From the NCBI GenBank assembly GCA_937981665.1, contig CALJOJ010000057.1, forward strand, positions 3,255 to 27,254: 24,000 nucleotides of DNA, written 5' to 3'. Shown here piece after piece: positions 2,149 through 18,169 of the stretch; position 1 is the stretch's first letter; every line of letters starts with the position of its first letter. The notes beneath the pieces are model-generated. The model was not told the origin of the DNA. It ran no database searches and worked only from the letters and a program-made list of their open reading frames with translations. This DNA is from an uncultured Rubritalea sp. GTDB lineage: Bacteria; Verrucomicrobiota; Verrucomicrobiia; Verrucomicrobiales; Akkermansiaceae. The translations under genes and the position numbers were made by a program.

Positions 2149-3510
2149 TTAGTTGGCTTTGAATAAATTGATCTTGGTAAGTAGGGTGCTAAATAATCCC
2201 TTACCTACGGTCTTTGTGACTTGTTCTGAATTATCATGATTCCAATGCGCAATAATTTCGTCTTCATATTGATTGAAAAATTCTGGGTCGAAGTTCGCTC
2301 CTGCTAGCTGACTGAGAACATCAGTAATTTTAGCCTCATCGCTTAACCACTTTTCCCAGACTTGATGACGATGACGAATCCCAAAGACATTAACCCCTGT
2401 GACAGCTAAATCATTCTCTCTGTAGTTAATGCGGATGGTAATGTGCTTGTCTGGAGCTTTCCAAAAAAACGTCTTTTCTCCATCTTGTGGATCAGGCATT
2501 ACTGTGCCGTAAGTCTGGTATTCGATATCGAAAAACTTCGCTGAGTTCCACCAGATGCCCGGGTTATAGTCTTGTGGATCACCACATATATTAGCAGCAA
2601 CAAATGCGCCCTGAAGTTTACCTACATACCAGACTGCTTCTATCGGTCTACGTCCCTTAGGAGGAGTACGTAACTGAGCACAGTCACCAATACTCCAGAC
2701 GTTTGGAAGGTTTGTTCTAAAATGGTTATCCACTAGGATTCCTCGATCAGTTTCGACCTCGCTACCTTCTTTTATCCAATCAATATTAGGTCTAACTCCG
2801 GCGGTAAGACCAACGATAGAACATTCTATTTTTTCCCCAGCTTTAGTGACGATATGCGAAACTTTGCCATCATCTCCAGCATGAATGCTATCTAGCTCGT
2901 CACCCATTCTTAAGTCTACATGATGCTCATGGATGTGATCTTCAATCATCATAGCCTCCTCTTCAGGAATAACGCTGCCCCAGAAATTTTTCTCTCGGAC
3001 TAAGAAACTGACACCAATCCCACGAGTGATGAGCATTTCTGCCATCTCTATACCGATCAATCCTCCACCTGCGATTACTGCATGTTTGGCTCCGACAGCA
3101 TTTTTTTCTAGCTCATCAAGATCTTGTTTAGAATAGAGTCCTTGAACACCAGGCAGATCCTGCCCAGGCCAGCCGAACTTGTTAGGAGTGGAACCTACGG
3201 CTAATATGAGATGACTATATCCAAGCTTTTCTCCTCCCTGAAGAATGATGCTATTAGAGTGATGATCTATTTTTTCTACCCAAGCACGCTTAAGGTCTAG
3301 TTTATTTTCTTTCCAGAAATGATCTTCATAAGGCTGAGTGTGTTTAAATTTCATATGCCCCATAAAGATATACATGAGGGCGGTTCTGGAGAAATGGTAG
3401 TCAGTTTCTCCTGAAATGATGAGGATTGGCACTTGGGAATCTAGCTTTCGGACTTCGCGTGCTGCGGTGACTCCGGCTATTCCGTTACCAATGATAATGA
3501 TAGGTTGCAT
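2149..3510 (-). CDS. NAD(P)/FAD-dependent oxidoreductase (pyridine nucleotide-disulfide oxidoreductase fold)
   Basis: N-terminal FAD Rossmann motif IIIIGNGIAGVTAA. Second dinucleotide motif AVIAGGGLIGIEMAE. Motif SIGDCAQ near the FAD-binding C-terminal segment. No redox-active CxxxxC pair is visible. Confidence 0.9.
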   Translation of the reverse strand: MQPIIIIGNGIAGVTAAREVRKLDSQVPILIISGETDYHFSRTALMYIFMGHMKFKHTQPYEDHFWKENKLDLKRAWVEKIDHHSNSIILQGGEKLGYSHLILAVGSTPNKFGWPGQDLPGVQGLYSKQDLDELEKNAVGAKHAVIAGGGLIGIEMAEMLITRGIGVSFLVREKNFWGSVIPEEEAMMIEDHIHEHHVDLRMGDELDSIHAGDDGKVSHIVTKAGEKIECSIVGLTAGVRPNIDWIKEGSEVETDRGILVDNHFRTNLPNVWSIGDCAQLRTPPKGRRPIEAVWYVGKLQGAFVAANICGDPQDYNPGIWWNSAKFFDIEYQTYGTVMPDPQDGEKTFFWKAPDKHITIRINYRENDLAVTGVNVFGIRHRHQVWEKWLSDEAKITDVLSQLAGANFDPEFFNQYEDEIIAHWNHDNSEQVTKTVGKGLFSTLLTKINLFKAN

Positions 3511-3758: not shown

Positions 3759-4487
3759 ATGAACATTTCAAAACTAACTACATTTTCTACTATCCTAGCT
3801 GGCTTCATTTTCACTCAGGCAAACGCCCAAGACTACACAGCTTATAATGAGCTTCTTAAAAAGTACGCACAGCCTGATGGTGTAGACTACAAGTCATGGG
3901 ATAAGAGCAGTAAAGATCATAAGGCACTAGAAAAAATCCTTAAAGAATGGGCTAAGATCGACGCAAGCAAGCTCCCTCATGCAGACAAAGCGGCCTTTCG
4001 TATCAACCTCTATAATGCTGCGATGGTCGACGTGGCGCTCGATAACTACCCATTAGCCACTGTGACTAAGCTAGGTGATAAGGACTTCGCTATCTTTGAT
4101 GCTAATATTATCAACACCCCAGGTGGAGCTATCAGTCTCAATACACTGGAGAAGAAAACCTTACTTAAAGAATTTCCAGATTCACGCCTCCACTTCGCAG
4201 TGAACTGTGCCAGTGTGAGCTGCCCGCCACTCCGTAATGAAGCATACACAGGAGCTCAACTACAGCAGCAACTTACGGACCAGAGTGTGAAGTTCGCTAA
4301 CAGCCCACATGCAGTACAGGTGAATGGATCTACAGCCCTCTACTCTGAGCTCTTTAACTGGTACGCAGCGGACTTCAAAACCAAGAATCCTGCTACCTAC
4401 CTTAATAATTACAGAACAGCAAAGATCAATACCGCAGCAAAGATAGGATGGATCAAGTATGACTGGAATCTAAACCAGTCTAAATAG
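3759..4487 (+). CDS. Exported DUF547 domain protein
   Basis: N-terminal signal peptide (MNISKLTTFSTILAGFIFTQANA-QD). DUF547 hallmark segments are AAFRINLYNAAMV and RLHFAVNCASVSCPPLRNEAY. Confidence 0.8.
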   Translation: MNISKLTTFSTILAGFIFTQANAQDYTAYNELLKKYAQPDGVDYKSWDKSSKDHKALEKILKEWAKIDASKLPHADKAAFRINLYNAAMVDVALDNYPLATVTKLGDKDFAIFDANIINTPGGAISLNTLEKKTLLKEFPDSRLHFAVNCASVSCPPLRNEAYTGAQLQQQLTDQSVKFANSPHAVQVNGSTALYSELFNWYAADFKTKNPATYLNNYRTAKINTAAKIGWIKYDWNLNQSK

Positions 4488-4531: not shown

Positions 4532-6037
4532 ATGTTAGTAAATATTCCACTCTTCATCTATGCCTTCTGTAGTGCAGTTCTTATTCTATTCGGGCTGCAT
4601 CACTATTTTATGATCTTTCTCTTTTTTAAGAAGAAAAATGGCATCAAAGAAGATAACCAACGTACTGAAGAAGAAAATGCGATCACGGAGCAAAATGCCC
4701 CTGCAGTGCTATCACAGATCCCGCTCTACAATGAGCCTGCTGTAGCTGAGCGTGTGATCCGTGCTGTAGCTGAGATAGACTATCCGAGGCATCACATCCA
4801 GGTGCTAGATGACTCTACAGATGACTCTACTAAATTAGTAGACAAGGTAGTTTCTGAGCTACAGGAAAAAGGGATATCTATCGAAGTATTGCGCAGAGAA
4901 GGTCGCGCAGGCTTTAAGGCAGGCGCTCTTGACTACGGTCTGAAGAAAAATGATGCACCTTATGTTGCCATCTTTGACAGTGACTTCGTACCACCGAAAA
5001 ATTTTCTAGAACGAACGATCCCGCATTTCTTAACAAACAACAAATACTGCGTGGTGCAAGCCCGCTGGGGTCACCTTAACTCTGAAGAAAATGCCTTTAC
5101 CCGCGCCCAGAGTGTCGGTGTGAACGGGCACTTTGTCATTGAGCAAGTGGCGCGCTCATACAATGGATACTTCCTAAACTTTAACGGAACTGCTGGCATC
5201 TGGTCACGTGAGGCTATCACTGACGCAGGAGGGTGGAATGCGGACACTCTAACAGAAGACTTAGACCTCTCATACAGAGCACAGCTCAAGGGATGGAAAA
5301 TCCACTTCTTGCCTCACCTCGTAGTCCCCGCCGAGCTTCCATCCTTCTACCAAGCTTTCAGATCCCAACAGTTCCGCTGGGCAAAAGGTTCCATGCAGAC
5401 GGCTAAGAAACTTCTGCCCGTAGTATGGAAATCTGGCATCCCTGTTTCTAAGAAAATAGAAGCCTCATTCCACCTCACTCATTACTCTATCCATCTGTGT
5501 ATGTTCCTACAGGCACTCATGGCATTACCTATCATTTTGATCAATAAGAACTCATTTGATTCACAAGTAGTGGCATGGTTCGCGGCTCCGATGGCATTAG
5601 CAATGATAGGCCCGAGCTTACTCTATCTAGTAGCCGAACGTTGGCTGGATTCAGAGAAAGGAACCCTAAATTTTTTCAACCGCTTACCGATGCTTCTACT
5701 AATCGGTTTCGGTATCTGCCTGAGTAACGCAAGAGCATGTGTCGAAGGACTCATCGGCATCAAGTCACCATTTGTTAGAACTCCGAAGAAAGGTGATCAC
5801 CAGTCGATGACTAAATTCATGGATCTAGGTAAGGGAAGTATTATGCCGATACTTGAGATAAGTATGGCGTTGCTCACCCTCGTGACGGCAATTGTTTACT
5901 ATAATAAAGACTCTGCTGCTATCATCCCGTTCTTCCTTATCTACTCCTTTGGATTCGCCATGTTTGGTTACAGAAGCATCACGGGTGGCATAGAAAAAAA
6001 CACTGTTAAAAAAACCGCCAAACGCTTTAAGACTTGA
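4532..6037 (+). CDS. Processive family-2 glycosyltransferase (CslA/BcsA/MgdA-like membrane beta-glycan or glycolipid synthase)
   Basis: One N-terminal TM helix, a GT-A domain with LDDSTDDST, FDSDF and TEDLDLS, and QQFRW (QxxRW) at 5366-5380. Several C-terminal TM helices follow. Confidence 0.85.
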   Translation: MLVNIPLFIYAFCSAVLILFGLHHYFMIFLFFKKKNGIKEDNQRTEEENAITEQNAPAVLSQIPLYNEPAVAERVIRAVAEIDYPRHHIQVLDDSTDDSTKLVDKVVSELQEKGISIEVLRREGRAGFKAGALDYGLKKNDAPYVAIFDSDFVPPKNFLERTIPHFLTNNKYCVVQARWGHLNSEENAFTRAQSVGVNGHFVIEQVARSYNGYFLNFNGTAGIWSREAITDAGGWNADTLTEDLDLSYRAQLKGWKIHFLPHLVVPAELPSFYQAFRSQQFRWAKGSMQTAKKLLPVVWKSGIPVSKKIEASFHLTHYSIHLCMFLQALMALPIILINKNSFDSQVVAWFAAPMALAMIGPSLLYLVAERWLDSEKGTLNFFNRLPMLLLIGFGICLSNARACVEGLIGIKSPFVRTPKKGDHQSMTKFMDLGKGSIMPILEISMALLTLVTAIVYYNKDSAAIIPFFLIYSFGFAMFGYRSITGGIEKNTVKKTAKRFKT

Positions 6038-8052
6038 AGCTAAGAGAAATAGTTTGGCTTGTTCTCGCTGTAATCATAGCTGTGCTATGCTACTGCTATG
6101 CATCTTACACGCCAGATTTTGATAGCTATGGAACTCCACGAGTTATCCTAGGAGTGCTTATAGGAATAGTAGGCTTGGCGATGGTCTTCATCTTCCCTAA
6201 TGTTTCTAACAAGAAGGCAATCATTCTCATTCTAGCCATCGCGGCGATCACTCGTTTAGCTATTTTCCCCACTGGAGCATCAGACGATGTGAACCGTTAT
6301 CTCTGGGAAGGAAATCTCTATTCTCAAGGTATCAGCCCGTATAAAAATGTAGCTGAGCATAAGTCCTATATTCCCTATCGTGATCAGTTCTATGAGGAAA
6401 TGAACCATAAGGATAAGCCCACTGCTTACCCTCCATTCGCTCTACATTGCTTTAGTATGATCAATAAAATCGGCTATAACCCGAGCAGTTATAAGATCGT
6501 ATTCCTGCTGTTAGACTTACTGGTTATCGCTACCATTTTGGCATTATTACGCCACTATCATCGGCCTATTCAATGGTCACTACTTTATGCGTTGAGCCCT
6601 ATTTCGTTATTATCTTTTGCTGCTGAAGGTCACTTTGATGTGGTGATGGTTCTATTTCTAACCGCTTCTATTTTATGTATGACTAAGCGATGGATCATCC
6701 CGTGCGGTATCGCTGTGGGGCTCGCCATTTCTGTAAAAGTCATGGCCGCTGTGGTCGCGCCTATCATTCTTTTGAAGACAGGTTGGAGAGGGATCATCGT
6801 AGGCATTATTGTCAGCCTCCTGCCACTAGCACTCTACTATGATGATAGTTTACAGATGGCTCAGGGTATTCTTAAATTTGGATCTAACAGATTTAATGGC
6901 CCGGCTAATCAATTTTTTGTACAGGCCCTTGGCTTCTCTACAGAGTATGCGGGGGCTCTCTGTAAAGTTCTCTTCTTTACCTCATGGGGTATAGGATTCT
7001 GGCTCTGCATTAAGCATAAATTCTGGGTAAGTATCAACCTCTGTCTGGGAAGCCTTATCTTCTTCTCCCCTATTATTCACTTCTGGTATCTCTCATGGTT
7101 ACTGCCATTCATTGCTCTTCGTCCGTCACTGCCGTGGATCACCATGTCCATCACCATGCCCCTCTACTTTACTGTGTGGACGCAGTTTGAAAACACTGGT
7201 GAATGGGCTATGCCTGTCTGGGCGCGCTGGCTATTCTGGACACCATTTATCCTCGCCTGCATCATGCATCTTCCACGTCACGTGATCTCCATGTTCTATG
7301 CCATCACCCGACCTACATCTAACAGAAAAGAAAATGAGAGGTTACATTGGTCAGTAATCATCCCTACGCTAAGCATCGATGTTAGACTCAGAGAACTCAT
7401 TCTAAAACTAGAGAAACAGAGCATAGTGCTGGACGAAATAGTCATCGTGTATTCTTCTGATGAAGACGTGAGCGATGAGTTAAAATCCGAGTATTTTCAT
7501 ATCAAAATGATCCATTCTCCTAGAGGGCGAGGGCTACAAATCAAGACGGGTGTGGAAGCTGCGCAGATGGACTGGTGCCTTATTCTCCATGCAGACAACC
7601 AGCTACAACTAGACACATTCAGTAAGCTTAATGCAGCTATCCAGGTGAATGCCGACATCGTAGGCGGCAGCCTCGGTCAGCGCTTCGACCGTCACGCTCC
7701 AGGGCTACTACTTATAGAGAGCATGAATGACTTCCGAGCCAGTTTACTACAAACTAGCTTTGGGGATCAGAACCAGTTTTTACATCGCGAGACGGCGATT
7801 AGCAATAACGTCCTCACCGATCAGCCCTTGATGGAAGACATAGAAATGAGCGACAGGCTGAGACTGCAAGGCGACACCTTACATCTCGCCCATGAGAGCA
7901 CAGTATCAGCCGAGAAATGGAAGAAGAAGACGTACTGGACACGCTTCTTCACCATCGTTGGCTTCTATTTTAAATACCGTATACTGTTTTACTCAGCCCG
8001 TAAACGCGCGGACTTGAGCAAGATGTTTTATAAAAAGTATTACCTACGATAA
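6034..8052 (+). CDS. Fusion protein: N-terminal polytopic GT-C-like (DUF2029/PMT/PIG-V-like) membrane domain plus C-terminal TIGR04283-like GT2 domain (rSAM/selenodomain-associated transferase 2; arsenosugar-associated glycosyltransferase)
   Basis: Residues 1-430 contain more than 10 hydrophobic helices and an acidic loop motif, GASDDVNRYLWEG (starting at 6280), after early TM helices, as in GT-C enzymes. For the C-terminal domain see the separate feature at 7345-8049. The start is TTG at 6034, overlapping the upstream TGA. Confidence 0.75.
   Translation: MKLREIVWLVLAVIIAVLCYCYASYTPDFDSYGTPRVILGVLIGIVGLAMVFIFPNVSNKKAIILILAIAAITRLAIFPTGASDDVNRYLWEGNLYSQGISPYKNVAEHKSYIPYRDQFYEEMNHKDKPTAYPPFALHCFSMINKIGYNPSSYKIVFLLLDLLVIATILALLRHYHRPIQWSLLYALSPISLLSFAAEGHFDVVMVLFLTASILCMTKRWIIPCGIAVGLAISVKVMAAVVAPIILLKTGWRGIIVGIIVSLLPLALYYDDSLQMAQGILKFGSNRFNGPANQFFVQALGFSTEYAGALCKVLFFTSWGIGFWLCIKHKFWVSINLCLGSLIFFSPIIHFWYLSWLLPFIALRPSLPWITMSITMPLYFTVWTQFENTGEWAMPVWARWLFWTPFILACIMHLPRHVISMFYAITRPTSNRKENERLHWSVIIPTLSIDVRLRELILKLEKQSIVLDEIVIVYSSDEDVSDELKSEYFHIKMIHSPRGRGLQIKTGVEAAQMDWCLILHADNQLQLDTFSKLNAAIQVNADIVGGSLGQRFDRHAPGLLLIESMNDFRASLLQTSFGDQNQFLHRETAISNNVLTDQPLMEDIEMSDRLRLQGDTLHLAHESTVSAEKWKKKTYWTRFFTIVGFYFKYRILFYSARKRADLSKMFYKKYYLR
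7345..8049 (+). other. TIGR04283-like GT2 domain inside the 672-aa fusion protein
   Basis: Segment HWSVIIPTL...IVIVYSSDED...SPRGRGLQIKTGVEAAQMDWCLILHADNQL...SFGDQNQFLHRE...PLMEDIEMSDRL...SAEKWKK. It matches my recollection of the family consensus (IIPT.NE, GRa.QmN.Ga, lfLHaDt, yGDQ, lMEDie...Rl). Confidence 0.7.
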
Positions 8053-10610
8053 AGGAATGCGTCTGATGTTACCAGTGAAGTAATGAGAGCTTTCATACTG
8101 CCATCGTTATCGCGGTAAGCTTTATGAGCTGCTTTCAATACCGGAGCGTCATGCAAGGTTTCGTTTCTACCCATCCAGTAGCGGAAGGCGTGGCGGACGA
8201 AGACCTGTTCTACGCGCTCACTCTTGGCTAGCTTGTTGATCATTTCAAACGCATCTTTGACAGGGCCATCTAGTGCGGGATCACCGGAGTCAATGATTCT
8301 GCCGCTAGTGTCCACTGGCTTACCATGCTCAAAGTCGCGAAAAATCCCCATGTGATTATACATCTCAAAGGTGAGGCCTAATGGGTCCATTTTTTCATGG
8401 CAGCTAATACATTGCTTTTCTCGTGTGATACGCATGCGTGAGCGTAGTGTGGTGCCCGGTTCATCTGGAAGCTGAGCATCCACTGTAATAGGAACATCTG
8501 GAATGCCACCACCTAACAGACGCTCGCGCACCCATATGCCACGGTGAATAGCGTGGTTATCCATAGCGTCTGAGTGTGAGACTAGCCAAGATGGAGTGGT
8601 GAGGATGCCGAGACGCTCACCTTTAGGAGCATTGGTAAGAATACGCTCTGCCGGCATCGATCTTAAGCCTAATGTAGGCCTTGTCATGCGGGCATAAATA
8701 GGCTCACCTGTTAAATCAGCATGATTAACTTTTGGCGTTTTTAGAACAGCCAAGTCACGGCGATAGGCCGCTGAGGTATTAGACTTGTTACGTATGTCAA
8801 AGACTTGTTTATAGAGTTCTCTCCACCTCTCGCTGCCTTTACTAGCTCTATTAGCCTCAGTGGTTAGTTTTTTCTTTTCATTTATTAGCTGTTGAGTCCG
8901 TGCGTTGGCTCTGTCATAATTTACATTCCAACTGTCGATTTTTTGTTTCGATAGTTTCGCCTCTTGCTCGGTAAACATCTTACCGTAGAAAACGATATCG
9001 TCTGGTGAAGCGACTACTTTCTGCGTAGTGAGTAGCTGATTGAGTACATCTTTATCTTCCTCAAGAATAAACTCCACGAGACGATCCGTACTGGCAGAAG
9101 CGCCAAACATAGATTTACTAAGTTGTTCAGTATCATGGTTTATACCTGCCTCCTTTAAGGCTTCAGCGTCTTTATCGTTATATCCTGCTAGATCATAGTC
9201 AAAATATTCGCGGAAAAACTGAAGCACACGTGGCTTTCTAAGCGTGTCATCATTTAACATGCGGGTAAGCTCACGCTTTACATCTTCTTTGGTACGCATC
9301 TTACCATTGACAATTGCTTTACGTAATGTGGCATCGGGCTTGATGTAGCTTAGTGCATGGTTCACCGCTAGCCCTAGTTCCCAGTCTTGTAACATCACTC
9401 TACCGTGTTCATCCGTAGTATTTCCTGTACCCAGCTCAGAGCGGAACAGTGCATCTCTATCGAGAAATATCGCAGATAGCCCTACGATTACTCCTTCTTT
9501 CTTACCTAGCTTCGCGATCGTATTTTCGACTAGTTTCATGTACTTACTGGTCTCTGTATCCGTAGGAGGACGGAAGGTGAGCCTCTCAAAGAGGTCAGCC
9601 ACTACATGACGTAACTCTTCTTCTGTATACTCTTTCTCTACATCTTGGAGCAGATGATAAAGTGGGGTTTCTGGTCGGTGAAATTTAGTACTATAAGTGA
9701 GTGATGATGCAAGACCGCGGTCATCTTCTCTCTCTCGTTTGAGCTGGTGTTCCGTGGGATCATCAGTGATCTGATCTGGTGTGCTTGAAATGCTAATAGG
9801 CCCGAATGCAGCATACCTGAGCAGGCGCTGAGCTTTATCTAAGATCTGCATCGTCTCCGCGCTATTCACGCTCGCTTGGTCTGCGTAGTTCTCGATACCA
9901 TGTTGATGCATGGATGACAGCACACTCGGAGTGCTCGTGATAGCGGTCACATAGGCCACGCTACCACCAGACCAGTTGATGATATTATCAAGCCCGTAAT
10001 ATAGCTTCAGCTCCCCTGCATGGTTCACTGGGATAGCATCTCCATGAGTACGATACCCTGGCTTGTTAGGATCGTACTTAGGTTCGGTGTTGATGAGCTC
10101 ATTTAGTCTTGTTAGATGCTCGCTAGGTGTTACTCGCCAGATTCTTCTAGGAGATGCGGTAGGCTCTAACTTTATGTCCTTTGGTAGCTCATTAAAGAGC
10201 AGATCATGATCTACGAAGTTTCCTCGCTTCGCTTTCTGATGATCATGAAATCCTCCTTTATGTTTCATCAAGGTTTCCATGTTAGAAACGATGCCGTGGT
10301 TAAATTTTAGTCGTTCAATAATTTCTGGTTGTTCCTCATCTTTTGGAGGCATTTCCTTCAGAGCTACTTGAGCCCAGATAGACTTCCATTGTTCTGCGTT
10401 GGTCTCATCAAGCTGTCCCAGGTCATCCATGTTGAAACCACCTTTTTTTGAGCCATCTCCATGACAATCAAAACAATAGTTCTCTAGGAAATCGGTAGTG
10501 AAGGCTTGGTAATCTTTGATAGTACTATGCCCAGGGACATAGTTTTCCTGCGCGCTGATCGAGGAGAACGGCGATACCGCTACTATTAAAAATGTGCTGA
10601 TTATTTTCAT
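8040..10610 (-). CDS. DUF1592/DUF1588/DUF1585-family protein (planctomycete-type PSD/PSCyt domains), exported, with two CxxCH motifs
   Basis: Signal peptide MKIISTFLIVAVSPFSSISA-QE. CFDCH at 10461-10475 in the context NYCFDCHGDGSKKGGFNMDD. CISCH at 8397-8411 in the context CISCHEKMDPLGLTFEMYNHMG, the DUF1588 hallmark. It is paired with the upstream DUF1552 gene, as this family typically is. Confidence 0.85.
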   Translation of the reverse strand: MKIISTFLIVAVSPFSSISAQENYVPGHSTIKDYQAFTTDFLENYCFDCHGDGSKKGGFNMDDLGQLDETNAEQWKSIWAQVALKEMPPKDEEQPEIIERLKFNHGIVSNMETLMKHKGGFHDHQKAKRGNFVDHDLLFNELPKDIKLEPTASPRRIWRVTPSEHLTRLNELINTEPKYDPNKPGYRTHGDAIPVNHAGELKLYYGLDNIINWSGGSVAYVTAITSTPSVLSSMHQHGIENYADQASVNSAETMQILDKAQRLLRYAAFGPISISSTPDQITDDPTEHQLKREREDDRGLASSLTYSTKFHRPETPLYHLLQDVEKEYTEEELRHVVADLFERLTFRPPTDTETSKYMKLVENTIAKLGKKEGVIVGLSAIFLDRDALFRSELGTGNTTDEHGRVMLQDWELGLAVNHALSYIKPDATLRKAIVNGKMRTKEDVKRELTRMLNDDTLRKPRVLQFFREYFDYDLAGYNDKDAEALKEAGINHDTEQLSKSMFGASASTDRLVEFILEEDKDVLNQLLTTQKVVASPDDIVFYGKMFTEQEAKLSKQKIDSWNVNYDRANARTQQLINEKKKLTTEANRASKGSERWRELYKQVFDIRNKSNTSAAYRRDLAVLKTPKVNHADLTGEPIYARMTRPTLGLRSMPAERILTNAPKGERLGILTTPSWLVSHSDAMDNHAIHRGIWVRERLLGGGIPDVPITVDAQLPDEPGTTLRSRMRITREKQCISCHEKMDPLGLTFEMYNHMGIFRDFEHGKPVDTSGRIIDSGDPALDGPVKDAFEMINKLAKSERVEQVFVRHAFRYWMGRNETLHDAPVLKAAHKAYRDNDGSMKALITSLVTSDAFLYRR

Positions 10611-10628
10611 CGTTTCAGTAGAAATAAA

Positions 10629-12035
10629 TTAAGCTAGAACCTCGCGTAGAGGGCCGCTGCTAGCGTCAAATTTCCCTGCAAGACTCTCGGACATGTTATA
10701 TCTTTCAACAGTGTTCTTTCCGCAGCCAGTCATGAGTGAAGCGTAGAGAGAGTTGATAGGTCTACTTCCATCAAGTTTAGTCAGCCTACCGGTTTTAAAG
10801 GCTCCTCCTGGATTCCCTATGAGCATCATCGGCCAGGTTTTTCCTGTGGTGTGTTGCTTGTCTGCATTGTTAGAAGTATAGACGATGAGTGTGTTGTCCA
10901 TCATCGTGCCGCTACCTTCAGGAACACTTTCAAGCTCTTCAATGACCTTAACGAGCATTTCCATATTATAAGCGCGGATTTTATCCCAAATTGGATTTCT
11001 ATACTGCTGCATGTGGCCTAGGTTATGCCCTCGCTGCTGGATACCTAGACCTGTATATGAACCAAAAATTTGACCACGACCAGAAGCCATAGTGAGGACA
11101 TTTGTAGTGCCTGACTTTAGAGTGGAGATACCTAGGTCTAACAAGACATCATGCCAGTCTGTCTCAGACTCTGGAGCTCTGTAGCGGCTGTCCACTGTAG
11201 GGGCAAATTTTCGTAAGTGATCTTCGGCGCTGGCGAGCTTATCACGGAGCGTATTCATGTCTTCGAAGCCATTGATAAACTGATTATATCGTTCTCTATC
11301 TCCAGATGGCAAAGCCTCAGCATTGCCCTGAGCTATTTGATGGATATTACCTAACAACGCGGTCTGCACGTCATGCTGAGTGCGTAAGTCTCCAGTGGCT
11401 ATCCCGCCGTAGAGATGCTTATAGAGATGCTCTGGATTAGAGTGCATGAAGATCGGTTTTCCTGCACCAGAGGCAGAGAGTCGTGCTACGGTTGGCTTGG
11501 CCTTCATTGCTTCTAGAGAGTCCATACCGATGCAGAGATGAGGGAGTAAGCTCGTTGGCATAAGTTGGCTTAGATCATGGTCAATAGTTGAGCCACTAGG
11601 CAGCATGCCATCACCACTACGGTAGCCACCTAGAGCACCAAAAAAGGCGCTGTGCGTGGGGCTTGTGTGTTTGCCGTGCAGGCCTGTGATGATATGGAGC
11701 TTATCTTTGAAAGGGTCTAAGGCTTGGATCGGCTTTGGTAAAACAGCGCCGGCTAGCGAGCCATTATTTCCCGCCATTTTCGTAGGTAGGCAAGTGCGTG
11801 GGTCAAATCCTTGGTTCTGAAGAAAGAATACGACACGTTTAGGTCCACCTATGCTTCCTGGCTGAGCCACTCCCGCCTGAGCAAGCTGAGCTAAGAGTCC
11901 GGAGCTAGCACCAACACCAGCACCGAATAGTGAAGTCTTCGCTGCTGCTCCCAAGCTACCAATCAGCGTTTTCAATGACTCTCTGCGTGTTAGTTCCTTC
12001 ATAAGAATTAATTTAATAAGTGATGATAGCCTCAT
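10629..12035 (-). CDS. DUF1552 domain protein with twin-arginine signal
   Basis: Tat-like [17 protein letters not shown] near the N-terminus. The protein is about 450 aa and sits immediately upstream of the DUF1592 partner with an 18-nt gap. The true start may be the ATG at 12002 ([11 protein letters not shown]), which gives a more standard Tat leader. Confidence 0.85.
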
Positions 12036-12990: not shown

Positions 12991-13425
12991 TTATTGGTTT
13001 TGATGCGTTAGCTCATCGACATAAAGCTCAAATTTCTCCGATATCTGATCACGAATTCTTCTAAACTCATTTTCCACTTCTTCAGGAGATCCTTCTGCAT
13101 CTGCAGGATCATCAAAGCTCCAGCAGTAGTGATTTTTCTCACCTTTGAAGGTAGGGCAGCAGCCTTCTGCATTATCACAAACGGTGATGACCGTCTCTAC
13201 CTCACCATCGATGAACTCATCGAGATGCTTGCTCTTGTGATCTGAGATATCGATGTTTATTTCTGACATCACCTTCTGTGCTAATGGGTGGACGTAGCCG
13301 GAGGGCTTAGCACCAGCACTCTGCACATCATAGAGGTGACCTACCTTGTGCTTGAGATAGCCTTCTGCCATATGGCTACGGCAGGAATTTCCGGTACAGA
13401 GTACTAGTATCTTTGGTTTATTCAT
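12991..13425 (-). CDS. arsC: Arsenate reductase, LMW-PTP/thioredoxin-coupled type
   Basis: P-loop LCTGNSCRSHMAEG (CX5R). Downstream Cys cluster ITVCDNAEGCCP matches the Cys82/Cys89 region of Staphylococcus/Bacillus ArsC. Length 144 aa. Confidence 0.9.
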   Translation of the reverse strand: MNKPKILVLCTGNSCRSHMAEGYLKHKVGHLYDVQSAGAKPSGYVHPLAQKVMSEINIDISDHKSKHLDEFIDGEVETVITVCDNAEGCCPTFKGEKNHYCWSFDDPADAEGSPEEVENEFRRIRDQISEKFELYVDELTHQNQ

Positions 13426-14420: not shown

Positions 14421-15581
14421 CTAGCAGCATCCATCAGTAGCACAGCAGTCAGAAGCGACTGTTGTGGCTTTATATTCCATGCCCTTTGTCTCTCTTGCAT
14501 GACGTGTCGTGTCACGTGAGCAGTCAAATTCTACAGCTTCTTCGAGTGGTATTTCTGTGCGTGGCGCGATGATCTCAAAATGATCTTTATACGGTGCCTG
14601 CTGGTAGAGATTATATGTCTTATCACATACTGCATAGCTCTGTCCGCGCTTCATCGTGTGGCCATCGTCATCACTGACCTGGCTGAATGGACCTTTGTAC
14701 ATGACTGCCTGATTACGCTCTAGACATGGGCCTTCCTTACCTTTCCAGGCACGGATCGTGACACTGCGGAATTCTATTCCCTCGACAGTCTGCCACGGCT
14801 CAGAATCACGCTTTAAAATTTCAATACCATAGAAACCTGCGTCTTCAAATGCCTTCACGAAGCCTTCTTCGGTGTATGCACCACTGATGCAGCCACTCCA
14901 GAGGTATGGGTCATCTGCTAAGTGCTTAGGGATCTCTTCATCACTGACGATGTCAGAAATGACAGCTCTGCCACCCTTTTTGAGAACACGGAAAAGCTCT
15001 TCGAACATCTGCGCCTTGAGGTCTTCTTCTACGAGATTTAAAACACAGTTAGAGACGACTACGTCTATGCTGTCAGATTCCACGAGTGGTTTCTTCTGGC
15101 TCAGCTCCTTAGTGATGACGTCTAGCTCCATCCAGCTATTAGCATCCTTGATAGGCTTGACTGCTATTTCCTGTTCTAACAGATCAAGGTTTAGCGCGAG
15201 GTCCTGAATACGTCCTTTTCTAAATTCCACATTCGCGTAGCCCACCTTCTCAGCAATGATCGGTGCGTTACGGTTAGCTACTTCAAGCATGTCATCCGTC
15301 ATATCAATGCCGATGACCTTACCTTCCGCACCCACTACCTGAGAGGCAATGAAACAGATCTTACCCGTACCAGAACCGAGATCTAGAACTACATCTCCAG
15401 ATTCCACATACTTTGATGGGTCACCACAGCCGTAATCCTTCTCTATCACTTCACTAGGAATGATCTTTAAGTACTGGGGATCATAATCTACAGGACAGCA
15501 AAGTGCTGGTTCTGCGGCTTCTGCGGCTGCTGCATATCTATCGCGGGTCGCCTCTTCGGACGTTGATATTGTGTCTGACAT
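14421..15581 (-). CDS. arsM: Arsenite S-adenosylmethionine methyltransferase
   Basis: SAM motif VVLDLGSGTGKICF. The ArsM-type conserved cysteines are present: ALCCPVDY, DYGCGDP, VSNCVLNL and WSGCISGA. There is a C-terminal domain ending in the Cys-rich tail SDCCATDGCC. Confidence 0.9.
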   Translation of the reverse strand: MSDTISTSEEATRDRYAAAAEAAEPALCCPVDYDPQYLKIIPSEVIEKDYGCGDPSKYVESGDVVLDLGSGTGKICFIASQVVGAEGKVIGIDMTDDMLEVANRNAPIIAEKVGYANVEFRKGRIQDLALNLDLLEQEIAVKPIKDANSWMELDVITKELSQKKPLVESDSIDVVVSNCVLNLVEEDLKAQMFEELFRVLKKGGRAVISDIVSDEEIPKHLADDPYLWSGCISGAYTEEGFVKAFEDAGFYGIEILKRDSEPWQTVEGIEFRSVTIRAWKGKEGPCLERNQAVMYKGPFSQVSDDDGHTMKRGQSYAVCDKTYNLYQQAPYKDHFEIIAPRTEIPLEEAVEFDCSRDTTRHARETKGMEYKATTVASDCCATDGCC

Positions 15582-15748: not shown

Positions 15749-17011
15749 ATGACTACGTTTAGTAAACTAATTCAAAAACCAGAAAATGCGCTTATTCTAC
15801 AGGCGGACTGGGAAGGCGGGATTACGCATGTCGCTAATGATCTCATTGATAATGGGGTAAATGTGACCAAAGTAGTGCTAAATGCAGCTGATTGGATATA
15901 TACCAGAAAAGAATTACCTACAGTGAGTTATGATCATCCTTTTGAAGAGTTCGAGTCATGGCTACGTTGTTATATTGCAGAAAATGGTGTGGATTGCATT
16001 ATTTTGTATAATCAGTACCGACCATATAATAAAGTGGGCTGGGATCTCGCTGAAGAACTGGGGATTCAATGTGTTGTATTAGAGCTGGGCTTATTGAGAC
16101 CTGATTTCTGTACTATTTACACGCGAGATTTTGACCATTTTACCTATTTAGCTGAGCAGTGGGGTCGTGTTATGAGTGGTGAAATTTCCCCAGAAAAATC
16201 TGTTGATAATCAGCGCCTTGCGAGAATGCGCACAACGGCCAAAATGAAGCAATTCGCTGCCTTCTTTTTGTTTTCTCGTTTGATGGCTATTATTTTCAGA
16301 CGTTATACTCATTACATTGACCAGCGAGGACAGGGGATTTGGCATCATTTATATGCGGCGGTAGTTTCGGGGCTTCGCTATCAAGGACGGATGAAGGATG
16401 ATCGCTATAATATAAAGTTTTCCTCCGAGTGGAATGGAGCATTCTACTTTGTCCCTCTGCAGGTGCATACGGATAGCCAGATCACCCAGCGCTCTCAGTT
16501 CACTTCGATCGATTACTTTATTGATGATGTCGTAGCATCGTTTTTAAAGCACGCTCCTAAGGGGACGAAGCTTGTATTTAAGGTGCATCCCATGGATCGA
16601 GGGTATAAGGATTACCATAAGAAGATCAAGGCGATCAATCAGTCTATAGGTGGTAAGAAGAGGATTTATTATGTGGATCGAATCAACCTTCCACTAGCTC
16701 TGGAACATTGCAGAGGATGCATCACTATCAATAGTTCGGTGGGGTTATCTGCATTGATCCATAGTAAAAAAACGATCTGTCTCGGTGAGGCTGCATATAA
16801 TCTAGCGAAGCTTACTTATCAAGGTGAACTGGCAGACTTCTGGAGGTCAGACTTTGAGCCGAAAAAGAAGGATGTAGAATACTTTATTAATCTACTGAAG
16901 CTGACATCTCAGGCTCACGGGGTTTTATTCCAGAGGCTGTATAGCGCGAAAGGAAACTGTAAAATTATTTGGCCTCAATTGTTCTCCCATATTTTCCATA
17001 AGGAAAAGTAA
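15749..17011 (+). CDS. KpsS/LpsZ-like capsule polysaccharide biosynthesis family protein (Capsule_synth domain; lipid-linked beta-Kdo transferase homologue)
   Basis: Motifs resemble KpsS/KpsC. VVLELGLLRPDF compares with FEEGYLRP. FYFVPLQVHTDSQI compares with the VPLQV..DSQ motif. GCITINSSVGLSALIHSKKTICLGEAAYN compares with vvTiNStvG.EAL..GKPV...G.A.Y. Confidence 0.75.
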   Translation: MTTFSKLIQKPENALILQADWEGGITHVANDLIDNGVNVTKVVLNAADWIYTRKELPTVSYDHPFEEFESWLRCYIAENGVDCIILYNQYRPYNKVGWDLAEELGIQCVVLELGLLRPDFCTIYTRDFDHFTYLAEQWGRVMSGEISPEKSVDNQRLARMRTTAKMKQFAAFFLFSRLMAIIFRRYTHYIDQRGQGIWHHLYAAVVSGLRYQGRMKDDRYNIKFSSEWNGAFYFVPLQVHTDSQITQRSQFTSIDYFIDDVVASFLKHAPKGTKLVFKVHPMDRGYKDYHKKIKAINQSIGGKKRIYYVDRINLPLALEHCRGCITINSSVGLSALIHSKKTICLGEAAYNLAKLTYQGELADFWRSDFEPKKKDVEYFINLLKLTSQAHGVLFQRLYSAKGNCKIIWPQLFSHIFHKEK

Positions 17012-17038: not shown

Positions 17039-18169
17039 TTAGAAATTTCTGTTAGGTGATGCAACGCTCGTGATAGTGCGCTCCAGCGTGCTGACAAATT
17101 CTTGGGCTATATCAGTCCATTGGCATTGGAGGATACTCTGGTGAGCTAGTGACTTCATTGTGCTATTGTCCTTATTCTGGATTGCTTTTAGAAGCTTTGA
17201 GCTTAGTTCTGAAATGTCAGCAGGGGGAGCAGTGTAGCCGTTTTCTCCATCAGTGATGAGATTGCCAGCGGCTGCGTAGCTATAGGCTACAGTGATGAGT
17301 CCAGAAGCGAGTGACTCTGTGATGACATTACCAAATGTTTCCGTCTCACTGGCAAAGAACATCACATCTGCGGATGCATAGTACTCAGCTAGTCGCTCAC
17401 CTTTAAGTACTCCAGCCCAGTGGTAAGCATTTGATGAGTATTTAGCTTCCAGGCTTTTCCTCAGTGGACCTTCTCCTACGATGACGGTTTTTATATTCAG
17501 AGAGCTGTCTAAGCTCGCGATGCTCTCTAGCGCAGCTGTTAGATTCTTCTCTTTAGCTATACGCCCTACGATGATGATCACGCAGTCTGCATCATTTACT
17601 CCCCATGAGGCCCTGAGCTCTGAGGATCTTTTCTCTGGGGAGAAGCGCTCTGTGTTGACGCCTCTTCCTATCACACTAAGATTTCTAAATCCCTGCGTAT
17701 GAAGAAGATCATAGGTGTGCTGAGATGGCACGATGGTGGCGTCACAGTAGTTATGGATGGCGCGTAGTATTCCCAGAATAGGGCGCTCGACTTGAGGAAT
17801 GAAATAGCGCTTTAAGTACTGATGAAAATTTGTATGGAAGCCAGCGACTACGGGTATATCTAGGTGGCGAGCCACCAGCATAGCGGAGATACCGAGGAAG
17901 CCTTCTGTGGCTACGTAGATGATATCTGGTCGTTGCTTGTTCCAAATCCCTCGCAACTTAAATGGCCGAGGGTAGCCGATCTTGACATCTTTATAAAAAG
18001 GGAAACGGAAGCCAGAGACGCTCGTTTCATAGTCTGCAGAAGTCTCGCCTGTATGGATCACATGCACGGTGTGTCCAAGCTGCAACATCGAGCGAGTGAG
18101 GCGTTGAAGTGTCAGCGCTGCTCCATTGATGTCAGGAGAATAGGTGTCTGTCACTATGGTTACATTCAT
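17039..18169 (-). CDS. Family-4 glycosyltransferase (GT-B fold, group 1)
   Basis: N-terminus MNVTIVTDTYSPDINGAALTL. Mid motif GFHTNFHQY. C-terminal nucleotide-sugar binding region FFASETETFGNVITESLASGL (EX7E-like). Confidence 0.85.
   Translation of the reverse strand: MNVTIVTDTYSPDINGAALTLQRLTRSMLQLGHTVHVIHTGETSADYETSVSGFRFPFYKDVKIGYPRPFKLRGIWNKQRPDIIYVATEGFLGISAMLVARHLDIPVVAGFHTNFHQYLKRYFIPQVERPILGILRAIHNYCDATIVPSQHTYDLLHTQGFRNLSVIGRGVNTERFSPEKRSSELRASWGVNDADCVIIIVGRIAKEKNLTAALESIASLDSSLNIKTVIVGEGPLRKSLEAKYSSNAYHWAGVLKGERLAEYYASADVMFFASETETFGNVITESLASGLITVAYSYAAAGNLITDGENGYTAPPADISELSSKLLKAIQNKDNSTMKSLAHQSILQCQWTDIAQEFVSTLERTITSVASPNRNF

Follow-up and report, generated by a model that had tools for sequence, protein, structure and literature searches.

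A recurrent fusion of a PimE-like membrane glycosyltransferase domain with a TIGR04283-related GT2 domain, partially linked to arsenic genes

A stretch of 24,000 nucleotides from an uncultured Rubritalea species (Verrucomicrobiota; positions 3,255 to 27,254 of contig CALJOJ010000057.1, assembly GCA_937981665.1), to which we refer throughout as the window, encodes a protein of 672 amino acids (aa) that joins two glycosyltransferase domains of different type in a single chain (open reading frame (ORF) 6034-8052, + strand, with a TTG start). The N-terminal domain (residues 1-430; 6034-7323, + strand) is a membrane domain of the GT-C type, resembling PimE, ALG3 and PIG-M in its GT87, Foldseek and profile matches, and the C-terminal domain (residues 438-672; 7345-8049, + strand) is a family 2 glycosyltransferase (GT2) domain of the GT-A fold, predicted to be cytoplasmic and assigned by a sub-threshold match to TIGR04283 and a match to PF00535. 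Both the existence of this ORF and the fact that its GT2 domain is not a standalone enzyme, forming instead the C-terminal third of a larger protein, were noticed in an original prediction made from the DNA letters, and both hold. We found the fusion to be genuine and recurrent and its linkage to arsenic genes to be real but partial, and we see about even chances that it represents the three-component type of glycosylation system (GT2, flippase and GT-C) collapsed into one polypeptide.

The fusion is genuine and widespread

The TTG start codon overlaps the TGA stop codon of an upstream GT2 gene (TTGA, 6034-6037; ACTTGAAG), and the homologs align with the protein from residue 1, which indicates that the start is placed approximately correctly. 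We searched 5.8 billion proteins and retrieved an identical one from a public collection (P0001), for which PF26314 (MptA_B_family) and PF09594 (GT87) are listed among the precomputed matches, as well as about 80 clusters of full-length homologs, 620-718 aa long and 27-84% identical to the query, most of which carry PF26314 and/or PF09594 together with PF00535. In their sources, these homologs are named only "glycosyltransferase", "GT87 family protein" or "hypothetical". The AlphaFold model of the full-length protein has a predicted local distance difference test score (pLDDT) of 94.3 and a predicted template modelling score (pTM) of 0.94, the latter implying, at the level of the model, a fixed interface between the GT-C and GT2 domains.

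To survey how often the C-terminal domain is fused, it was scored alone against 1.84 billion representatives at 50% identity, which yielded 681 matches at E <= 1e-10, and the best 150 of these were classified. The GT-C plus GT2 architecture was found in 101 of them, while two (P0150, 1159 aa, and P0175, 1147 aa) are triple fusions of the upstream GT2, the GT-C domain and the C-terminal GT2 domain, 41 comprise the C-domain only (28 of them 214-299 aa long), and the remaining 6 are tandem TIGR04283-like proteins or fusions with TIGR04282. In this last type of architecture, the single chains P0097, P0119, P0174, P0118, P0136 and P0176 combine TIGR04283 with TIGR04282 (DUF2064) or represent tandem duplications of TIGR04283-like domains.

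A scan of one genome per GTDB species retrieved 582 relatives, with the fused form present in at least eight phyla. Within Verrucomicrobiota it occurs in Rubritalea tangerina, Luteolibacter algae, Thalassobacterium maritimum, Akkermansiaceae, Opitutales and Puniceicoccaceae, and beyond them in Nitrosomonas, Desulfobacterales, Fibrobacteria, Acidobacteria, Kiritimatiellae, Cloacimonadota and other groups. Cultured organisms, among them the three verrucomicrobial species named and Nitrosomonas sp. Nm51, also carry it.

The N-terminal domain belongs to the GT-C superfamily

The Pfam GT87 family (PF09594) matches residues 132-273 of the fusion protein with 35.4 bits, above its gathering score of 25. 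In the AlphaFold model, residues 1-430 form an all-helical membrane protein, and residues 1-434 modelled alone reach a pLDDT of 93. When this domain-only model was compared with the PDB by Foldseek, yeast ALG3 was retrieved first (E = 1.4e-4, TM-scores 0.56/0.62), with PimE scoring similarly (E = 2.5e-4, 0.54/0.62); GPI mannosyltransferase I, ALG6 and PIG-U came next (E from 1e-4 to 7e-3 and TM-scores of 0.53-0.62 over the top five), followed by ArnT, Pmt4, ALG12 and EmbB/C. A profile built from the N-terminal domain together with its standalone relatives matches GPI mannosyltransferase I with E = 6e-8 and PimE with E = 0.0019. The membership in the GT-C superfamily suggested in the original prediction is thus supported by family, profile and fold, and can be specified as PimE/ALG3/PIG-M-like; on these grounds the domain can be filed as a GT-C/GT87-like member. 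The possibility that it is a transporter was also considered and rejected, as transporters and G protein-coupled receptors appeared in the Foldseek search at noise level only (E > 0.5, probability <=0.11).

The conservation of individual residues was measured over 70 full-length fused homologs. The acidic loop GASDDVNRYLWEG (residues 81-93; 6274-6312, + strand), where, in the model, a short helix (84-97) has D84 and D85 at its N-terminal tip, contains four invariant residues, D85, R88, W91 and G93, and six others (S83, D84, N87, Y89, L90 and E92) that are conserved in at least 90% of the sequences. PimE is an instructive reference here. Its D58, at the tip of the juxtamembrane helix JM1, is the catalytic base and is hydrogen-bonded by Y62; the phosphate of polyprenyl-phosphate is held by K195, W319 and H322, K195 forming a salt bridge with it, while W319, H321 and H322 bind the donor phosphate; and the mutants D58A, Y62A, Y92A, Q163A, K195A and W319A are inactive (PMC12041525). 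The spacing D85-x3-Y89 is the same as that of D58-x3-Y62, and, as this segment lies outside the hidden Markov model (HMM) alignment to PimE, we infer the equivalence of D85 and D58 from the spacing and the position at the helix tip rather than from an alignment. The earlier reading of this loop as one of the catalytic type is consistent with these data.

The remaining counterparts of the PimE active site could be aligned directly. Y132-P133-P134 (6427-6435, + strand; Y132 invariant) is HMM-aligned with Y92-P-P of PimE (9dm5). In the EGHFD motif, of which H200-F-D202 (6631-6639, + strand) is a part, both H200 and D202 are invariant and H200 is aligned with Q163. K235 (6736-6738, + strand), invariant in all three alignments, corresponds to K195 ("GLAvavK" to "GLAGGVK"), and H349, W351 and Y352 of the segment P346-IIHFWYLSWLL-P358 (7069-7107, + strand), which are invariant in the fused proteins, to W319, H321 and H322, respectively. 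The identities of the tyrosine and the lysine are therefore kept among the donor-phosphate positions, while the others are substituted. The invariance of these counterparts and of the acidic loop across the family makes it most likely that the domain is an active transferase dependent on a polyprenyl-monophosphate-sugar donor. By analogy with PimE it very probably works as an inverting enzyme that, on the outer side of the membrane, takes the sugar from polyprenyl monophosphate, and it is probably metal-independent.

Membrane topology

PimE has 12 transmembrane (TM) helices with both termini in the cytoplasm, and TM12, its longest helix, ends in the cytoplasm (PimE literature). The topology of the fusion protein was argued from this homology and from charge for its two ends and its first three helices. 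The N-terminus (MKLRE) and the loop 53-60 (NVSNKK) are basic and the loop 26-32 is acidic, a positive-inside pattern according to which three TM helices precede the acidic loop and place it outside. At the other end, model, hydropathy and charge delineate a last and longest TM helix (395-425) followed by a basic linker, RPTSNRKENER, into the GT2 domain (7216-7344, + strand). The arrangement assumed in the original prediction, with the loop, and hence the GT-C active site, in the periplasm and the GT2 domain in the cytoplasm, is consistent with both the homology and the charge bias.

The upstream BcsA-like synthase

The gene that overlaps the start of the fusion (4532-6037, + strand) encodes a membrane GT2 of 501 aa, of the processive-synthase type, with the full series of D, D, D and QQFRW motifs (DDSTDD, FDSDF, TEDLD and QQFRW) and TM helices at both termini. 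It is matched by the Pfam families Glyco_tranf_2_3, Glyco_trans_2_3 and GT21, it reaches no equivalog cut-off in NCBIfam, and its database names are generic ("cellulose synthase/PNAG synthase-like glycosyltransferase"); its best relative in the PDB is BcsA (residues 16-365, E = 4e-21). A homolog of this gene is found directly upstream of the fusion in at least 37 of the 49 fused loci with enough sequence, and the four-nucleotide stop/start overlap recurs between the called genes of the loci L003 and L004. In the triple fusions P0150 and P0175 the BcsA-like GT2 (residues ~8-480) is followed in the same chain by the GT-C domain (~532-906) and the TIGR04283-like GT2 domain (~914-1152), and this Rosetta-stone evidence points to a joint function of the synthase and the fusion. 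The synthase is translationally coupled to the fusion and appears to be its obligate partner. The original prediction had missed this gene as well as the wider module discussed below.

The GT2 domain and the proposed mode of action

By far the best family match of the C-terminal domain is TIGR04283, the arsenosugar biosynthesis glycosyltransferase family once named rSAM/selenodomain-associated transferase 2, which covers residues 440-649 along profile positions 2-209 of 221 with E = 2.3e-37, the next family reaching only E = 0.0026; PF00535 (Glycos_transf_2) matches residues 440-553 with 45.5 bits. The TIGR04283 score of 128.7 bits is, however, below the curated cut-off of 182, and among the 70 fused homologs only one attains the level of that cut-off (E <= 2e-53, ~182 bits). 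The fused domains therefore form a TIGR04283-related sister subfamily and not equivalogs of that family. Of the original assignment as a TIGR04283-type enzyme the family relationship remains, while the designation "Transferase 2 of the set" was overstated, given that 69 of 70 fused relatives fail the cut-off and that two loci possess a separate TIGR04283-like gene besides the fusion.

The sequence motifs of the domain suggest an intact active site. H519-A-D521 (7588-7596, + strand; H519 invariant, D521 conserved in at least 90% of the sequences) occupies a DXD-like position, and we take it to be the equivalent of the DXD motif that binds the metal and the nucleotide sugar in other GT2s. R499-G500-x-Q502 is conserved as well, and on the acceptor side G577-D578-Q579 and M600-E601-D602-x-E604 (7762-7845, + strand) are invariant. 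At the very C-terminus of the protein there is also a conserved Y-x-x-Y-Y motif that extends up to the stop codon (8032-8049, residues 667-672), in which Y669 is invariant and Y666 and Y670 are conserved in at least 90% of the sequences (alignment A1); it might make a contact with the membrane interface or between the domains.

Pairs of a GT2 and a GT-C enzyme that act via lipid-linked sugars are established biology (PMC7389260, PMC5836110), Ppm1/PimE being a further example. In the mode of action that we propose, the cytoplasmic GT2 domain would load a sugar onto polyprenyl phosphate at the inner face of the membrane, the lipid-linked sugar would be flipped across, and the GT-C domain would transfer it at the outer face to an acceptor, either a lipid or a glycan, that is probably made by the upstream BcsA-like synthase. 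It is a more speculative extension that, where arsenic genes are present, the transferred sugar would be derived from the ArsS product.

Several observations weigh against this proposal. In fold and profile searches of the PDB with the GT2 domain, WrtF, K4CP, DPMS (6.6e-14), ArnC (7e-10), TarS, GpgS and GtrB (1e-7) were retrieved, all of them matched only via the nucleotide-binding half, and the polyprenyl-phosphate enzymes DPMS, ArnC and GtrB scored no higher than WrtF or K4CP. The same three are absent from the top 50 Foldseek matches of the domain, among whose GT-A structures there are WrtF, RmlT, TarS and PcManGT, and a sub-profile restricted to the acceptor side (residues 540-672) found nothing in the PDB at E <= 10. 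The GDQ and MEDxE motifs resemble those of GT2s that use a hydroxyl acceptor, which leans slightly the same way. Finally, no GtrA/GtcA/ArnEF-like flippase was detected by Pfam and NCBIfam scans among the window ORFs of at least 80 aa or the called neighbours in L001-L005. The route of charging a lipid inside and transferring the sugar outside, as advanced in the original prediction, is a plausible hypothesis, the GT2 domain being no closer to the polyprenyl-phosphate GT2s than to other GT2s.

The main alternative, which we consider less likely, is that the two domains catalyse sequential steps on one and the same lipid. In such a scheme, the GT2 domain would glycosylate a hydroxyl of a membrane lipid or of another hydrophobic acceptor. 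Once flipped, the product would be extended outside by the GT-C domain with a polyprenyl-phosphate sugar that a separate housekeeping enzyme supplies, and the upstream BcsA-like GT2 would provide a third step. This would account for the fact that CruG and EpsD-type GT2s, and not ArnC, GtrB or DPM1, come next after TIGR04283 among the named families, and for the name "glyco_like_mftF" carried by the TIGR04283 model, as MftF and CruG are relatives with hydrophobic acceptors. An ED-type motif is typical of hydroxyl-acceptor GT2s, and M600-E601-D602 is invariant; there are GT-C-only versions without the GT2 domain in the same gene context (L054, L058 and L070); and PimE itself acts after cytoplasmic glycosyltransferases on a phospholipid-anchored glycolipid. 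On the other hand, the supply of a lipid-linked donor is the simplest explanation for joining a cytoplasmic GT2 to a periplasmic GT-C domain, and profile scans of the window and of the L001-L005 neighbours found no separate polyprenyl-phosphate sugar synthase within the conserved module.

Linkage to arsenic genes

The arsenosugar gene set referred to in the original prediction is truly present in the window. It is encoded on the strand opposite to that of the fusion and comprises TIGR04282 (12313-12969, - strand; 187.6 bits, cut-off 134), ArsC (12991-13425, - strand), ArsS (TIGR04167; 13439-14383, - strand; 426 bits, cut-off 300) and an ArsM-like methyltransferase (14421-15581, - strand), for which the best model is that of the arsinothricin ArsM (NF040538, 353 bits, cut-off 500). 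TIGR04282 and ArsS are located 4.3 kb and 5.4 kb downstream of the fusion, respectively. The ArsM-like protein scores 145 bits with the model of the arsenosugar ArsM (NF038099, cut-off 400), and an insertion is suggested by the match to its methyltransferase domain, which is split into two stretches.

Co-occurrence of fused forms with arsS, arsM and TIGR04282, which the original prediction had left to be surveyed, was found in several clades. Among the 56 fused loci whose flanks were fetched, TIGR04282 is present in 17, ArsS in 9 and a close ArsM in 9, and at least one of the three in 17 (30%); of the 20 loci whose flanks extend 8 kb or more in each direction, 5 contain at least one of them. 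On a neighbour-joining tree labelled by gene context, the linkage is distributed across the whole family, in Fibrobacteria/Proteobacteria, Desulfobacterales and four clades of Verrucomicrobiota, which rules out its restriction to a single clade. Apart from the fused domain, 16 of the 18 arsenic-linked fused loci have no TIGR04283-like sequence. The GT-C enzyme itself, and not only the GT2 domain, is linked to arsenic genes, as there are GT-C-only homologs beside ArsS and ArsM (L054, L058 and L070). These three loci come from Chthoniobacterales and Methylacidiphilales; DUF547 is likewise an immediate neighbour of the GT-C gene in them, and two also include TIGR04282.

The linkage has clear exceptions. 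In about 70% of the fused loci (39 of 56), among them all those of Nitrosomonas and those of Rubritalea tangerina and Luteolibacter algae, the fetched flanks contain no gene of the arsenic set. In L054, L058 and L070 the flank contains no TIGR04283-like gene, and in L038 (5517-6680) and L066 (11905-13092) the fusion and TIGR04282 are followed by a second, separate TIGR04283-like gene, 23-25% identical to the fused C-domain. The fused GT2 is therefore neither always needed nor always the sole copy.

Independently of the mode of action, there is some, if limited, likelihood that the fusion is a part of a general envelope glycan or glycolipid system handling an ordinary hexose, e.g. mannose, with no chemical tie to arsenic, and that ArsS, ArsM and TIGR04282 are nearby because of co-regulation, shared islands or the descent of the GT2 domain. 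Besides the many loci without arsenic genes, this would agree with the sub-threshold score of the C-domain, with the closest GT-C relatives being mannosyltransferases, and with the two unrelated genes that separate the fusion from the arsenic set in the window. However, the linkage is found again in distant clades and phyla, where the order of the genes varies. Several loci of Opitutales/Puniceicoccaceae have the fusion flanked by ArsS and ArsM, all on one strand: L011 and L055 contain a co-directional array ArsS-DUF547-redox-GT2-fusion-ArsM, in which the redox protein was detected via its NapH-like part, L010 has the same array without a match to the GT2, and ArsM starts ~70-110 nucleotides downstream of where the match to the fusion ends. 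TIGR04282 is the immediate neighbour of the fusion in L007, L014, L030, L048 and L066, which mirrors the canonical adjacency of TIGR04283 and TIGR04282 seen in L078, L081, L082 and L084. In L007, the closest relative with flanks, the set TIGR04282-ArsC-ArsS-ArsM abuts the fusion in the order found in the window and without the intervening pair of genes. The pair, comprising a PSCyt1/DUF1595/DUF1592/DUF1588/DUF1585 protein of 856 aa and a DUF1552 protein of 468 aa (together 8040-12035, - strand) located between the fusion and TIGR04282, is thus best regarded as a secondary insertion of ~4 kb that split one ancestral cluster.

At the opposite extreme, the entire route could serve arsenosugars of the envelope, an idea that we consider improbable in this specific form. 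The 5-deoxy-5-dimethylarsinoyl-ribosyl unit made by ArsM and ArsS would be activated, perhaps with the participation of TIGR04282, loaded onto polyprenyl phosphate by the fused TIGR04283-like domain and transferred in the periplasm by the GT-C domain, either to a lipid head group (e.g. phosphatidylglycerol, to give an arsenosugar phospholipid) or to the glycan of the BcsA-like synthase.

Two further observations concern individual loci. In one Verrucomicrobiales genome (assembly CAYNLE01; L006 and L037) there are two paralogous fusions. The first shares 56% identity with the window protein and lacks both the upstream synthase and arsenic genes, and the second, 32% identical, is embedded in a full GT2/TIGR04282/ArsC/ArsS/ArsM/DUF547 cluster. 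In L060 (2797-3736, - strand) the ArsS match consists of two pieces overlapping around residue 145, and the break could be due to an in-frame selenocysteine codon, the family being annotated as "(seleno)protein", or to a frameshift.

Standalone relatives and the least likely explanations

Fused and unfused states both occur in nature. Standalone GT-C relatives of about 50% identity (P0021-P0028) and standalone TIGR04283-like genes exist, and one of the former, P0022 (~430 aa), is a complete gene with its own stop codon in a different neighbourhood and with no GT2 gene downstream.

It is very improbable that the GT-C domain is a non-catalytic scaffold or a lipid-binding or flippase-like module that merely anchors the GT2 domain to the membrane. 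Such a role would have precedents, as PIG-U, which shares the fold and is not a glycosyltransferase, is among the top structural matches, and Ppm1 of M. tuberculosis is a polyprenyl phosphate mannose synthase tethered to an unrelated membrane domain; however, the Asp loop and the counterparts of the residues essential in PimE do not vary among at least 70 sequences, the most distant of which are ~27% identical, and H200, D202, K235, W351 and Y352 stay invariant when the standalone relatives are included. The likelihood that two neighbouring genes were joined artificially by misassembly or a frameshift, for which the existence of unfused relatives might be invoked, is negligible, because the same continuous architecture is found in more than 100 independent clusters at 50% identity, from many assemblies and from cultured genomes, because P0022 is an independent gene, and because the linker and both domains are confidently modelled as a single chain.

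Other genes of the module and of the window

The genes that recur around the fusion constitute a module of DUF547, Pyr_redox/NapH-like, GT2, GT-C::GT2 and TIGR04282. The DUF547 protein of the window (3759-4487, + strand; PF04784, 71.6 bits) has homologs in 19 of the 56 fused loci, and it is found also in L001 and L003. It possesses an apparent signal peptide (…FTQANA|QD) and a pair of cysteines (NCASVSCPP), and in the GT-C-only loci the family is again a neighbour of ArsS and ArsM. The cysteines, as a pair of thiols in the periplasm, could bind trivalent arsenicals. The NapH-like 4Fe-4S membrane protein (765-2144, - strand), identified by NCBIfam/Pfam-type profile matches, adjoins a Pyr_redox_2 flavoprotein (2149-3510, - strand), which is encoded separately here, while in L003 and L005 the two form one gene of 750-770 aa just upstream of the GT2 pair. 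NapH-like matches are present in 20 of the 56 fused loci, and the membrane redox protein might deliver electrons to ArsS or carry out periplasmic arsenic redox chemistry.

The PSCyt/DUF1552 pair is of a type typical of Planctomycetes/Verrucomicrobia. Next to ArsM there is a KpsS-like capsule protein (15749-17011, + strand), and further on a GT4 (17039-18169, - strand) whose best NCBIfam match is N-acetylglucosaminyl-phosphatidylglycerol synthase (139.6 bits, cut-off 480). It thus may be a phosphatidylglycerol-glycosylating enzyme beside arsenosugar genes, arsenosugar phospholipids being known, although this may be a coincidence.

Implications

The analysis defines a large family of enzymes, which comprises more than 100 clusters at 50% identity in at least 8 phyla and is represented in cultured marine Verrucomicrobiota and in Nitrosomonas. 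Arsenosugar biosynthesis is explained by ArsM and ArsS only up to 5'-deoxy-5'-dimethylarsinoyl-adenosine, and we know of no enzyme assigned to the removal of adenine, the formation of the glycoside or the assembly of arsenosugar phospholipids. Given its repeated embedding between ArsS and ArsM, the fusion is a candidate for these late steps of arsenosugar or arsenolipid biosynthesis. D85, K235 and D521 are candidate residues for mutation, with the transfer of lipid-linked or periplasmic arsenosugar as the prediction. Even without arsenic, a single-chain GT2/GT-C enzyme with no flippase gene nearby bears on the question of how lipid-linked sugars cross the membrane, although the architecture by itself would not astonish a glycobiologist.

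In the literature we found no paper on the function of TIGR04283 or TIGR04282 or on an experimentally determined activity of TIGR04283, none combining arsenosugar, ArsS and glycosyltransferase, and none on DUF547 with arsenic. Likewise, no description was found of the GT2-GT-C fusion family, of its pairing with a BcsA-like enzyme or of a GT-C enzyme in arsenosugar clusters, in line with the original prediction, whose author knew of no described function for such a fusion. The logic of GT2 plus GT-C is well known for separate genes; it is the fused family that is undescribed in the literature found.

Comparison with known systems

The upstream GT2 shares with BcsA, HAS and NodC the D, D, D and QxxRW motifs and the terminal TM helices. 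It differs from BcsA in being only 501 aa long and in having neither a PilZ domain nor a BcsB partner, and its product could be a glycolipid rather than a polymer. The fused C-terminal domain resembles TIGR04283 in the GRGxQ, HAD, FGDQ and MEDVE motifs, which are conserved in the fused family, and in its recurrent vicinity to TIGR04282 and ArsS. In contrast to TIGR04283 proteins, which are standalone enzymes of ~220-250 aa, it is joined to a GT-C domain and can coexist with a separate TIGR04283-like gene, and its score of 128.7 bits lies under the cut-off of 182. Compared to GtrB, DPM1 and ArnC, it belongs to the TIGR04283 lineage and is devoid of their C-terminal TM helices.

The GT-C domain is similar to PimE, MptA and MptB, mycobacterial GT-C mannosyltransferases that depend on polyprenyl-phosphate-mannose, in its fold, profile match and the invariant counterparts of the donor site. 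It also has a putatively equivalent D-x3-Y loop at the tip of a helix and, as in PimE, a C-terminus predicted to be cytoplasmic after a long last helix. It differs from PimE in two extra N-terminal TM helices before the putative catalytic loop, in the replacement of Q163 by H200 and of W/H/H by H/W/Y in the phosphate site, in the appended GT2 domain and in its occurrence in non-actinobacterial phyla. As a whole, the fusion is comparable to the three-component systems GtrB/GtrA/GtrV, CsbB/GtcA/YfhO, GacI/GacK/GacL, ArnC/ArnEF/ArnT and Ppm1/PimE, with which it has in common the combination of a predicted cytoplasmic GT2 with an extracytoplasmic GT-C enzyme, the latter depending in these systems on a polyprenyl-phosphate sugar (PMC7389260, PMC5836110). 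Unlike them, and with no flippase gene nearby, it brings both glycosyltransferases together in one polypeptide and has a BcsA-like synthase as its partner.

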